Below are positions 34,770 to 46,034 of a stretch of DNA of 64,000 bases, piece after piece; positions within the stretch are counted from its first letter, which is position 1, and every line of letters begins with the position of its first letter. The DNA lies in the sequence record PV805633.1, one strand, 5' to 3'. This DNA comes from a phage. Made by a program: the position numbers and the translations under genes. The notes under the pieces are model-generated. The model saw nothing but the letters and a program-made list of their open reading frames with translations, had not been told where the DNA came from and searched no databases.

Positions 34770-37700
34770 TTAGTTTACTAAGTTCATCCAAGGGTTTAGG
34801 TTGTGAGCACGAAGCCCCTGACCAAAGCCCCATGAGTAATCCAGACTACCCTTAGCAGCAATACTAAAGATGTTGTCCTGAATAGGTAAGCCAACGTTAC
34901 CAAACATGGTAGGAGTTGGAGCCAGCATCGCCATTGCTGCATGTACTGGGTTATTGCGAATCATGGACACTGCAACTTTTGCAGAACGAATCTTAAAGTT
35001 GTAGAACCACATCAAACCAACACTTTCCATATACCCACGGAAACGACCAGGCAGACGGTCATAGTTAATGAACTCTTCGGTTACACGTCCCAGTGCTTCT
35101 TCACGAGTCTTACCTTTACGCTGAGTCAGTTCATCATAGATGATTGCTTTAGCGATAAAGTCAGAGTACTCAACCGTCTTCTGGATACCCTGGAACAGAG
35201 CAGTATCTTTAGTGATAAGTGCATAACGACCAGCAGCACGTACAGACTTAGGTAACTTATCCGCCAGCTTTTCCATGTATTCGTGAAGTTTGCCTTCAGT
35301 AATCAGGATGTCATCACGACCAATACCAGCATCTGCAATTGAAGAGAACTCACCAGCTTCTATCAGAGGCCAGATACTCATACGCTTATGGCTATCAGTA
35401 ATGGACTGAATCTCAGCCTTAAGTTTACGAATCTGATTCGGGTTAGTAGCTGCACGTAATTCTGCTTCTGCATCTACCTGACGTAAACGAGATTTAAGGT
35501 ACTGGTTAATCTCAGCAGTTTTCTGTGGAATGCTCTTAGCAATGTTCTTAACTGGCACACCACGAGCAACCATCTGGTAAAGGTTAGCCAAAAAGTTAAC
35601 AACAGGTACGACTACTGACTTAACTACAATCAGAGTCTTAGCATCTTTAACTAAGTTTTGAACCAGGTTCTCACCACCCATTAAGTACTTATAGGCGCGG
35701 TTACCGGCTAAACCCAGAATAGCTTTTTTAAAAGTATTAAGCGTTTCCGGGGACCAACGAGAATTACCAGACCAAGCATCACCAATCGAAGCTGCACGAT
35801 AGCCAAGTGCATCATTCAGCATGTCACGACGTACCCACAGTTCACCCTCACCAAACAGTTTTTCTGCTTTCCGTCGAGTTTCGCTGTTCATCAGCTTAAG
35901 AGCATCAGCAGTTACTGGGTCCAGCTTAGAACCAAAAAGGTTCACGTACTGGGACTTATTAGCAGCAGACATCTTAATGTCTTCCTTGTACATGCTATAC
36001 AGGTTCTCAATCAGCATATCATTGAAACGCTGAGCCTTAGCTTCTTCCACCTGACGTCCACGCCATACACCAATTGCACGGGCAAGATGATTTTCACCTT
36101 CAATATGCTTCAGCATATTAGGGTTAATTGATTGCTCATAAGCAACCACATCACCTTTAGCATTATATACAGGCAGCAGTGGTTCATTACCACGTTCACC
36201 ACGAGCTAGTGCTTTAGCGATACGGTCTACAGAAGGCTTGTCAGTAATACGACCAGCTACCATGGAACCCATAGTAAAGCCTGTACCGAGGTCTACACCA
36301 CCAGCAGTATTACGAACGTTCTGTAGAATACCTTGTGAGAACGGAGCCTGTGCCTGTACTGGGGCAAAGTAGTAGCTACGTGCCAGACCTCGGTTAGCAG
36401 AGCTACCTTGATAAGTACCCAGACGAACATAGGACTTCTCTATCAAATCACCAAACTCGCTATCTTCAGCAACAACCAGACTAACACCCTGTTTAGTCTC
36501 ACTAGGGATATACCCTTTGTACTGGTTCAGGGTTGCACGCATATTAGATTTGGCTTTAGCCATTTCATCTTTACGCTGCCCAACCAGGTAAGAAGTAGCA
36601 AAGTCCATTCCCTCAACTTCTGTCTGAGCCAGTGAAGATAACATCTCACGGTCGGACTTGTTCATTGCTTCCAGTGCATACAGGGTAATAAGTTTATCCA
36701 GTTGAGCTACATCTACAATAGAACGAGTAGTCTTACGTTCACCCAGCATACGAGAGATTGCAGTAGCATTACGCAGCAAGTTTTTACCGACTGTGCCATT
36801 AATCATGTACTGAGCCAGTTGCTTAGATTTACGGTTAATCAGAGGCCAGTTACGACCAGCTTGTTTCTGCAAATCTGCTTCCAGCTTATTCACTTCACGG
36901 TCAACAATCTTCTGGTCTGAAAGCAGGTCACGAATTTCAGCCAGAGACATGGTGTCACGCAGGACAGCTAAGTCAGTTTTACCCATACCAGTGTACATTG
37001 CTTTCCACTCATCCTTAGTCAGCTTACGGCTGAACTTAGATGCGATAGTGGTAGGCAGGTGTTCACGGAACTGCTGACGGTCAGCCTGCACCTGTGCACG
37101 GACTGCTTTAATCAAATCGTATACAGAAGCATTGCTCTTAGTACGACCGGTTAAATCATTAACCAGGTCATGGAAAGGTTGCCATACTTTACCCTGGTTC
37201 ATTGCAACCATAACGCCTTCAGCTACGTTTGCACCATTCTTCTCTGTAGCAATAGCAGCCATTAGTTGTGCAGCATGAGCAGCACCTTTGACCAATGGGT
37301 TCTTGGTATTAGCTGCAACTTCACGAGCACTTTCTAAAACACGAGTAGACAGTACATCAATAGAGTCCACCAAATACTGGTTAGCACGGTCAATAGCATT
37401 ACCACTAGGAGTAGCAACGGAATCATAGAATGACTGTGCATTTAGGCTAGTCTGCATGATTGTTTGAGCCAGTGCATCCATACCTTCCTGTACGTTGGTA
37501 GCTTTGGTATCACCTGCTACACGAGCATTCAGACTAGCCATTGCAGCAGTACCAATGTTAGTCAGCATTGCATCAACGGTATTCCCAGATTTCTTATCTG
37601 CTTTCATAACAGGAATGTTAGCCAGTACGCTACGTACCTCTTCACTTACCATTGCCAGACCAACAAAGGTAGGCAGTATTGAAGAACGACCCTGTGCATC

Positions 37701-46034: not shown

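Follow-up and report, generated by a model that had tools for sequence, protein, structure and literature searches.

An Intact N4-Type Virion RNA Polymerase Gene of a G7C-like Gamaleyavirus with Two Domain Cassettes in Its Linker

Introduction

The 64,000-nucleotide stretch of phage DNA analyzed here (the window) contains a single giant open reading frame that an earlier note described as an intact gene of 3754 codons for an N4-type injected RNA polymerase. This locus raises two questions: whether the frame encodes such a polymerase, and what accounts for its length beyond that of the polymerase of coliphage N4. Full-length structures are now available for the N4 orthologue of this protein, gp50. 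The gene is not new, since a polymerase of which it is a close allele was annotated in 2012. The comparisons described below indicate that gp50 is very probably an injected virion polymerase with two acquired, independently folding cassettes in its linker, which are candidate cargo domains. What is modestly new is the pair of cassettes, which explains the surplus length over N4 gp50. All coordinates are those of the window, and the features within gp50 lie on the minus strand.

The gp50 Gene and Its Boundaries

The mechanical ORF extends over positions 34770..46034 (minus strand) and has 3754 codons when counted from the first TTG. It is by far the longest ORF of the window (the runner-up has 887 aa), and the probability that a frame of this length is open by chance was calculated to be ~1e-92, with ~5.5% stop codons expected from a GC content of 44.8%. 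The likely start codon is the ATG at 46016, because a Shine-Dalgarno-like AGGAAA that was read from the sequence (46023..46028, minus strand) lies 6 nt ahead of it and because this start agrees with Met1 of N4 gp50 and with the annotation of phage vB_EcoP_G7C (G7C); the TTG at 46034 is an unlikely start. The coding sequence then spans 34770..46016 and encodes 3748 aa plus the stop codon, so that the open frame of the earlier note stands and its length is corrected.

Both ends of the gene are marked by hairpins. A palindromic, G+C-rich, terminator-like hairpin (34740..34763) lies just beyond the gp50 stop codon and marks the point where both directions of transcription converge; the G7C annotation places terminators on both strands at the matching position. 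Between gp51 and gp50, the hairpin AAAAGCCC-TACG-GGGCTTTT followed by a T-run (46082..46103, minus strand) was read from the sequence. It is identical in G7C and was missed by the hairpin scanner.

Homology and Catalytic Residues

The gp50 protein shares 98% amino acid identity with G7C gp50 (AEL79661.1), with 74 substitutions that cluster in the linker and no indels, and 66% identity with N4 gp50 (YP_950528.1). An exact-sequence look-up of the protein in the assembly collection returned no entry. Searches with phmmer against the solved N4 vRNAP structures, both full-length and mini-vRNAP, gave E=0, and the match is colinear, with aa 1-966 and 1257-3747 corresponding to N4 1-970 and 998-3499. 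The alignment to mini-vRNAP (2po4/3c2p/3q0a), whose failure the earlier note had named as the outcome that would speak against its proposal, covers aa 1265-2362 with E=0 and ~1650 bits. Four vRNAP-specific subdomain families of Pfam (PF21894, PF21867, PF21769, and PF21624) all score far over their gathering thresholds, and the PHROG 'virion RNA polymerase' matches with 4060 bits.

The N-terminal domain (NTD; aa 1-906, 43299..46016) is homologous to the N4 NTD, which is membrane-associating and required for ejection (PMC13434306). The T7-like polymerase domain (aa ~1266-2360, 38937..42221) is the equivalent of N4 mini-vRNAP and contains the Pfam domains vRNAP_dom_2, vRNAP_plug, N4_RNAP_helical, and vRNAP_dom. 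The T7-like motifs A, B, and C that had been noticed in the central third of the protein were located by alignment to N4: the catalytic aspartates are D1806 of motif A (40599..40601; N4 D559 in mini-vRNAP numbering) and D2198 of motif C (39423..39425; N4 D951), motif B is R1913-x3-K1917-x7-Y1925-G1926 (40239..40280), and a TxxGR motif is found at T1667-R1671 (41004..41018). The local context of R1671, D1806, R1913/K1917/Y1925, and D2198 is the same as in N4. The promoter contacts are conserved as well. W1377 (41886..41888) corresponds to W129 of N4 mini-vRNAP, which stacks on promoter base -11G (PMC13492108), and R1367 corresponds to N4 R119.

The C-terminal domain (CTD; aa ~2379-3748, 34773..38882) is homologous to the N4 CTD, which is autoinhibitory (PMC13434306; PMC13492108). 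Its subdomain C1 carries a zincin-like HExxH motif (H2482-E-L-V-H2486, 38559..38573) that is invariant among gp50, G7C, and N4; the HExxH module of N4-like vRNAPs has been described (PMC5512222; PMC13434306). Taken together, these results support the reading of the ORF as an ordinary, intact gene for a giant N4-type polymerase that would be packaged in the virion and injected, in a G7C-like Gamaleyavirus (Schitoviridae).

Gene Neighborhood and Integrity

The gp50 gene sits among late virion genes beside the ejection proteins gp51 and gp52, and homologues of the virion genes gp51-gp59 lie directly upstream on the same strand in the order found in G7C. Several neighboring genes had been described as interrupted, and this was borne out: g16 is split by an intron-like insert of ~0.8 kb, and gp51 and gp61 each have, near positions 46368 and 58953 respectively, one 1-nt deletion relative to G7C that shifts the frame. 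Lesions are so rare across the 64 kb that finding the 11.2-kb gp50 gene intact is statistically unremarkable; it was calculated that two random hits would spare gp50 ~68% of the time.

The frame-shifting deletions in gp51 and gp61 could mean that the assembly is defective or laden with errors, and that gp50 is intact as an ORF only and may be non-functional. This is very improbable, as the gp50 gene shares 96.9% nucleotide identity with G7C with no indel across 11,244 nt, has an overall dN/dS of 0.087 in this comparison, and retains every key residue. The interruption of g16 is a known spliced group I intron and represents no damage (bioRxiv 10.1101/542787).

Hairpin Promoters and the Proposed Role of gp50

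Three predicted promoter hairpins of the N4 vRNAP type were found at the left end of the window, on the template strand ahead of early genes. GTTGC-GGA-GCAAC (88..100, minus strand) lies upstream of gp1 with a predicted start near 105 and CC at +1/+2, GACGC-GGA-GCGTC (767..779, minus strand) lies upstream of gp2 with a start near 784, and GGTGC-GGA-GCACC (4748..4760, minus strand) lies upstream of gp15 with a start near 4765. Their loops are centered at 94, 773, and 4754, and they are the only GGA-loop hairpins with a stem of at least 5 bp in the 64 kb. They match the N4 promoter P2 (GAAGCGGAGCTTC, PMC13492108) in the GCGGAGC core and in the CC at +1/+2.

Homology with N4 suggests that the capsid would contain a few copies of gp50, which would leave it N-terminus first by way of the tail and a channel of gp51 and gp52. 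The NTD would remain at the inner membrane while the T7-like core refolds in the cytoplasm and recognizes supercoil-extruded GGA-loop hairpin promoters at the left genome end. The core would then transcribe the early genes, with the CTD presumably holding it in an autoinhibited state until promoter binding.

Two Cassettes in the Linker

The surplus length was suspected of being lineage-specific, and this proved to be so. The 248 aa by which gp50 (3748 aa) exceeds N4 gp50 (3500 aa) are two discrete domain cassettes within the linker between the NTD and the polymerase, and they are found in a subset of relatives. Alignment to N4 maps them to the equivalent of the low-complexity linker at N4 907-1006. 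In N4 this linker is a flexible low-complexity tether of ~100 residues (PMC13434306), whereas here it is ~360 aa long and contains the two modules. A segment rich in V/S/T/P/E/K (aa 907-971, 43104..43298) precedes module 1, and a spacer of E/V/T/P-rich composition (aa 1090-1126, 42639..42749) separates it from module 2.

The cassettes are under constraint that matches that of the polymerase core, and the true spacers are relaxed. Compared with G7C, dN/dS is ~0.07 for the modules, a value drawn from a small number of substitutions (module 1 has 5, module 2 has 26), and 0.27-0.38 for the spacers, with 0.38 in the segment at aa 907-971. Gamaleyavirus vRNAPs have zero, one, or two cassettes, with clean presence or absence among near-identical relatives. 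Both are present in G7C and in the window (3748 aa); module 2 only is present in E20 (3604 aa), PhAPEC5, Bp4, ECBP1, and pSb-1; neither is present in PhAPEC7 (3450 aa), SP5M, IME11, and phi G17. Since the modules are absent from N4 itself and from many related phages, they are dispensable for the core mechanism.

This polymorphism, together with the abundance of HNH genes in the G7C-like genome group and the spliced intron in g16, could suggest that inteins or homing-endonuclease traffic left the inserts behind as remnants, and that they are not functional parts of gp50. We consider this extremely unlikely. Neither module has a Hint, intein, HNH, LAGLIDADG, or GIY-YIG match, and the boundaries fall within low-complexity linker, away from a conserved site of the host protein. 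Intein junction residues are absent (module 1 runs from ...GPEMK to ...NTFSQP, and module 2 ends in ...TVGGKP), and many proteins that are not inteins contain module 2 as a stable domain. The preferred reading is that the two cassettes were independently acquired and would fold independently, each between low-complexity spacers in the tether.

Module 1 (aa 972-1089, 42750..43103) is an orphan inserted domain that is absent from N4 and most Gamaleyavirus and was seen only in G7C, the window, and Shigella phage B2. It shares 76% amino acid and 77% nucleotide identity with a segment of B2 gp30, and the remainder of gp50 is only ~26% identical to the B2 vRNAP. Given this difference between the segment and the rest of both proteins, module 1 appears to have moved laterally. 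Searches of Pfam, PHROGs, NCBIfam, and PDB sequences gave nothing credible; one PHROG annotated 'HTH' matched weakly (E=0.0036). Word-indexed homologue searches, where giant proteins seem poorly represented, found no match. With a few exact peptide and DNA patterns, which have limited sensitivity, a scan of IMG/VR found G7C alone, and JGI metagenomes and GTDB genomes gave no match. A single-sequence AF2 model of the whole insert (aa 949-1266) had a pLDDT of 36, too low to serve as a structure of module 1.

Module 2 (aa ~1127-1262, 42231..42638) is modeled by AF2 as a confident alpha/beta fold (pLDDT 91, pTM 0.87). Its invariant positions are SPxL, G, DH, R, and Q, among them S1150, P1151, D1165, H1166, R1189, and Q1215 in gp50 numbering. 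Phages and conjugative elements also encode this domain in DarB-like "polyvalent" proteins, and two large proteins of this type, P0004 and P0005, have it at 56-62% identity. Its carriers also bear LPD38, LPD22, LPD39, InPase, SLT, ART-PolyVal, TrwC relaxase, ddrB-ParB, and an SNF2-type helicase with a methyltransferase, and one carrier is located in the late region of a temperate phage. For module 2, searches of Pfam, PHROGs, NCBIfam, and PDB sequences yielded no credible match; it belongs to no Pfam family, PDB structures offered no convincing counterpart to its fold, and none of 20 module-2 sequences matched the LPD models (Pfam LPD1-39) at E<=1. The word-indexed search, with the same apparent shortage of giant proteins, returned a single fragment. 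Module 2 appears, from these comparisons, to represent an uncatalogued domain family that is common to polyvalent proteins.

The assignment of module 2 as a PD-(D/E)XK or HNH nuclease was considered and rejected. Its invariant residues are mostly N-terminal to the beta-sheet core, the conserved acidic/Lys triad is absent, and so is the second His/Asn.

Possible Roles of the Cassettes

Carried on a presumably injected protein, the cassettes would enter the cell ahead of all phage gene expression. We infer that they may be cargo domains of the polyvalent-protein type that act against the host or function in DNA entry, possibly in counter-defence. Tentatively, the tether of Schitoviridae vRNAPs could be a docking site for swappable, ready-made effectors, with module 1 and module 2, the latter shared with DarB-like polyvalent proteins of the anti-restriction type, as injected counter-defence or host-takeover domains that act at DNA entry. 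If so, the polymorphism of zero, one, or two cassettes in Gamaleyavirus would reflect differing host defence repertoires.

It is also possible, though doubtful, that both modules are passive and lengthen or stiffen the tether or aid packing in the capsid, with no host-directed activity. In N4, the sole known role of this region is that of a flexible tether (PMC13434306). The modules showed no recognizable catalytic or binding fold, and close relatives manage without them. Several observations argue against passive modules. The polar constellation of module 2 (S, P, D-H, R, Q) is invariant across hosts that are just 22-40% identical, and the module is also found in unrelated giant proteins, of both phage and conjugative-element origin, that lack a tether of this kind. 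Both modules are constrained as strongly as the polymerase core while the spacers are relaxed, and module 1 is held at 76% identity across phage subfamilies.

The difference in length is thus explained by a tether that accepts small folded domains and has apparently gained them by lateral transfer; in N4, this tether presumably links the polymerase in the cytoplasm with the NTD at the membrane. Nearly isogenic phages that naturally carry no cassette (PhAPEC7), one (E20), or both (G7C) make the role of proteins that are injected before expression directly testable.

Comparison with Known Systems

The closest known system is G7C gp50, which has the same length of 3748 aa, the same start and neighbors, and both inserted modules. 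Other Gamaleyavirus vRNAPs have flanks of the linker that are 87-94% identical and keep the gene order, and they differ in cassette content and hence in length. The Ithacavirus Shigella phage B2 (Humphriesvirinae) carries module 1 in gp30 at a matching place before the polymerase core (aa ~960-1080); module 2, present in gp50 here, was not found in that protein.

N4 gp50 (PDB 9PNQ/9PNR/11GP; mini-vRNAP 2PO4/3C2P/3Q0A) resembles gp50 in its colinear NTD, T7-like core, and HExxH-bearing CTD, in its catalytic and promoter-contact residues, and in its GGA-loop hairpin promoters. Iyer et al. (2017, PMC5512222) already place N4-like vRNAPs among the polyvalent proteins, as a class whose accessory fusions vary. 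The fusions described there for vRNAPs are ART, lysozyme, and PBECR domains, from which modules 1 and 2 differ. The large polyvalent proteins of phages and conjugative elements that share module 2, DarB-like helicase/methyltransferase proteins among them, have no RNA polymerase, unlike gp50. The multi-domain make-up from a shuffled, shared domain pool that characterizes polyvalent proteins was found for gp50 through the domain company of the module 2 homologues. Like these proteins (PMC5512222), gp50 is giant and multi-domain and would be delivered with the invading DNA, and it has module 2 in common with them.

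Identity and extent of the virion RNA polymerase gene

The gene encoding the giant virion RNA polymerase (vRNAP), gp50, lies in an uninterrupted frame on the minus strand (34770..46034) of 3754 codons counted from the first TTG. The second-longest ORF of the 64-kb window is 887 aa, and at a GC content of 44.8% (~5.5% stops among random codons) we calculate that a 3754-codon frame would arise by chance with a probability of ~1e-92. That TTG can almost certainly be discounted as the start codon. An ATG at 46016, six codons inside the TTG frame with AGGAAA 6 nt ahead of it, pairs with Met1 of N4 gp50 and is the start annotated in Escherichia phage vB_EcoP_G7C (G7C). 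Taking this ATG as the start gives a product of 3748 aa, so the intact gene described in the earlier note stands and its length of 3754 aa does not.

The gp50 DNA is 96.9% identical over its full length to the G7C gene annotated as virion RNA polymerase, and some 60 further records from Gamaleyavirus and related phages match it at 88-93%. Relative to G7C gp50 the protein has 74 substitutions and zero indels (98% identity), and it is 66% identical to N4 gp50. The N4-type assignment that had been proposed is borne out by alignment to N4 mini-vRNAP, as gp50 matches the crystal structures 2PO4, 3C2P, and 3Q0A at E=0; the full-length N4 vRNAP structures 9PNQ/9PNR/11GP are also matched at E=0. All four vRNAP-specific Pfam domains are present and the PHROG for virion RNA polymerase scores 4060 bits. 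The G7C/N4 virion genes gp51-gp59 border the gene on one side, and the other side holds the replication genes gp36-gp47. These identities and the synteny indicate that the window covers the leftmost 64 kb of the genome of a G7C-like phage, and its gp50 is closely allelic to a polymerase that was already annotated and is well understood. Over the 357 nt differences from G7C gp50, dN/dS is 0.087 for the whole gene, 0.057 for the polymerase core, 0.078 for the CTD, and 0.053 for the NTD. These values reflect strong purifying selection on a gene with no sign of decay.

Catalytic motifs and promoters

The N4 residues were carried over to gp50 through the alignment and their equivalents sit in identical local sequence context. 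The N4 mini-vRNAP motif residue numbers fell on the expected residue types: R424 of TxxGR is R1671, D559 of motif A is D1806, R666/K670/Y678 of motif B are R1913/K1917/Y1925, and D951 of motif C is D2198. Motif B carries the T7 signature R-x3-K-x7-YG, and the motifs are in the central third of the protein, as had been claimed, at 44-59% of its length. The HExxH motif, which is located in CTD subdomain C1 of vRNAP (PMC13434306, PMC5512222), is HELVH in gp50 (residues 2482-2486). The residues of N4 mini-vRNAP that contact -11G, W129 and R119 (PMC13492108), are conserved as W1377 and R1367.

The whole window was scanned for hairpins with perfect stems of at least 5 bp and 3-nt loops. Only three have a GGA loop, all on the minus (template) strand with a 5-bp stem, and these vRNAP-type promoter hairpins lie just upstream of gp1 (88-100, loop centre 94), gp2 (767-779, loop centre 773), and gp15 (4748-4760, loop centre 4754). 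All three have a GCGGAGC core and CC at template +1/+2 counted from -11G. The N4 P2 promoter is arranged alike (...CCAAAAGAAGCGGAGCTTC; PMC13492108), and this match indicates that the polymerase and its promoters are both present in the window.

Neighbouring genes

The earlier note described several neighbouring genes as interrupted, and this is the case for g16, gp51, and gp61. The gene for the RNAP II large subunit, g16 (5764-7787, plus strand), is split by an insert of ~806 nt (~6187-6992) with an Rfam Intron_gpI match at 6602-6941 (30.2 bits, E=2e-5, under the gathering score); the ORFs within the insert at 6250-6525 and 6569-6853 have no Pfam match. The exon junction in the window is QAV|MTAFYGSEAK, which is identical to the spliced peptide shown experimentally for the g16 intron of the G7C-set phages N4G2 and Sz33 (bioRxiv 10.1101/542787). 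The interruption is a known working intron, and the window is probably from one of these horse-derived phages.

The other two genes, both on the minus strand, are frameshifted by 1-nt deletions relative to G7C that may be real mutations or sequencing errors. In gp51, the ejection protein gene beside gp50 (46129-48074), the lesion is near 46368 (ACCCA-AATAAG vs ACCCAGAATAAG in G7C); the ORF stops at 46209, giving 621 aa vs 654, and the final ~80 homologous residues are in a different frame. In the N-acetylmuramidase gene gp61 (58408-59042) the lesion is near 58953 (GGAAGG-GGG vs GGAAGGAGGG in G7C), and the frameshift past ~aa 31 would disconnect the catalytic part from the N-terminal segment. 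Lesions are so few that an intact gp50 is to be expected and is not in itself notable.

Other differences from G7C were observed. The window lacks counterparts of the G7C HNH homing-endonuclease genes gp41.1, gp47.1, gp15.1, gp24.1, and gp2.1 (26512-26796, ~32562-32800, ~5610-5760, ~11076, and ~1300-2100), and gp41 is 94 aa compared to 156 aa in G7C. The gp52 product (48087-48551, minus strand), which in N4 is the periplasmic-tunnel ejection protein, has 76% identity to its G7C counterpart with gaps at 6 positions, and gp51 is 88% identical to its G7C equivalent, so both are far more diverged than gp50 (98%) and gp53-gp59 (95-100%). The ~1.8 kb from gp47.2 to the end of gp50 (~32965-34770) holds just small unconfirmed ORFs and terminator-like hairpins at 34030-34061, 34454-34474, and 34740-34763. 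No CDS is annotated in the G7C equivalent, whereas N4 has gp48 and gp49 there, following a 1.5-kb gap.

Two cassettes in the linker

The length beyond N4 gp50, which had been thought possibly lineage-specific, is 248 residues concentrated at aa 962-1097 and aa 1140-1265 rather than spread out. Both blocks are inside the region equivalent to the N4 linker between the NTD and the polymerase, a low-complexity stretch of ~100 residues (907-1006) believed to act as a tether that keeps the cytoplasmic polymerase attached to the membrane-associated NTD (PMC13434306). The two cassettes, module 1 (aa 972-1089) and module 2 (aa ~1127-1262), are flanked and parted by V/S/T/P/E/K-rich spacers. Among close relatives the cassettes are cleanly present or absent in alignments that are otherwise 87-94% identical: the PhAPEC7 vRNAP (3450 aa) has neither, that of E20 (3604 aa) has the second only, and those of G7C and the window (3748 aa) have both. 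Module 2 is found in ~30 phage records, every one a Gamaleyavirus, and both modules only in G7C (two records of one phage).

Within the phage collection, module 1 is present in just two phages, G7C and Shigella phage B2. The latter is an Ithacavirus of a different subfamily, and its gp30 holds the module at the same pre-polymerase position. Between the two copies, identity is 76% at the protein level and 77% at the DNA level, compared to ~26% for the rest of the two polymerases, which suggests that the cassette was transferred laterally. Searches of IMG/VR, JGI metagenomes, GTDB genomes, and protein collections gave no further relatives. A low-confidence single-sequence model, itself unusable, hints at β-hairpins with a helix after them.

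Module 2 has 20 homologues among 1.84 billion representatives searched exhaustively with phmmer, with S, P, L, G, D-H, R, and Q invariant in the motif GD..xSPWLxADG...GxxGDH...TGAIRaxF...LTxEQ. AF2 with this alignment yields a confident α/β model (pLDDT 91.4, pTM 0.87). One homologue is standalone (166 aa); the carriers are proteins of 680-3675 aa with LPD38, LPD22, LPD39, InPase, SLT, ART-PolyVal, or TrwC relaxase, and a distant vRNAP, P0013, bears the module at the same pre-polymerase position. The nearest relatives outside the vRNAPs (56-62% identity) are two DarB-like giants, P0004 and P0005, a pair with lengths of 3675 aa and 3253 aa that has nothing besides module 2 in common with gp50. 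P0005 combines SLT, an SNF2-type helicase, a methyltransferase, and LPD39, and the other has a methyltransferase, ddrB-ParB, and LPD39. The P0005 gene (7083-18110 in locus L022, 4250-15277 in L023) belongs to a phage that carries an integrase, and it has tail-fibre genes on one side and lysis genes on the other; a Tad2-like gene is nearby. These contexts place module 2 among the shuffled domains that make up the 'polyvalent protein' pool of Iyer et al., in which N4-like vRNAPs are already one class (PMC5512222).

Possible roles of the modules

An intein origin of the modules was excluded, as there are no Hint or endonuclease signatures and the junction sequences do not fit. The dN/dS relative to G7C, on small counts, is ~0.07 for the modules, like that of the catalytic core, and 0.27-0.38 for the surrounding spacers. 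This low dN/dS of the modules, the polar residues conserved in module 2, and the persistence of module 1 in different subfamilies lead us to take both to be functional folded domains. It has been proposed that 'beads' of 250-300 aa pass a ~35 Å channel (PMC13434306); the modules are ~120-135 aa each, well below this size, and thus should not hinder ejection. Their position predicts that they would be delivered to the cytoplasmic membrane face at the DNA entry site, and they would arrive before any phage gene expression. The main rival explanation is that the modules are passive, with a tether or packing role. Our preferred, though unproven, reading is that they have a host-directed or counter-defence role.

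The one new detail of this polymerase is how its extra length relative to N4 is built, from two domain cassettes that were acquired laterally and lie in the tether; this is of modest interest and is open to experiment. The vRNAP fusions listed by Iyer et al. are to ART, lysozyme, and PBECR (PMC5512222), and module 2 is an uncatalogued polyvalent-protein domain.
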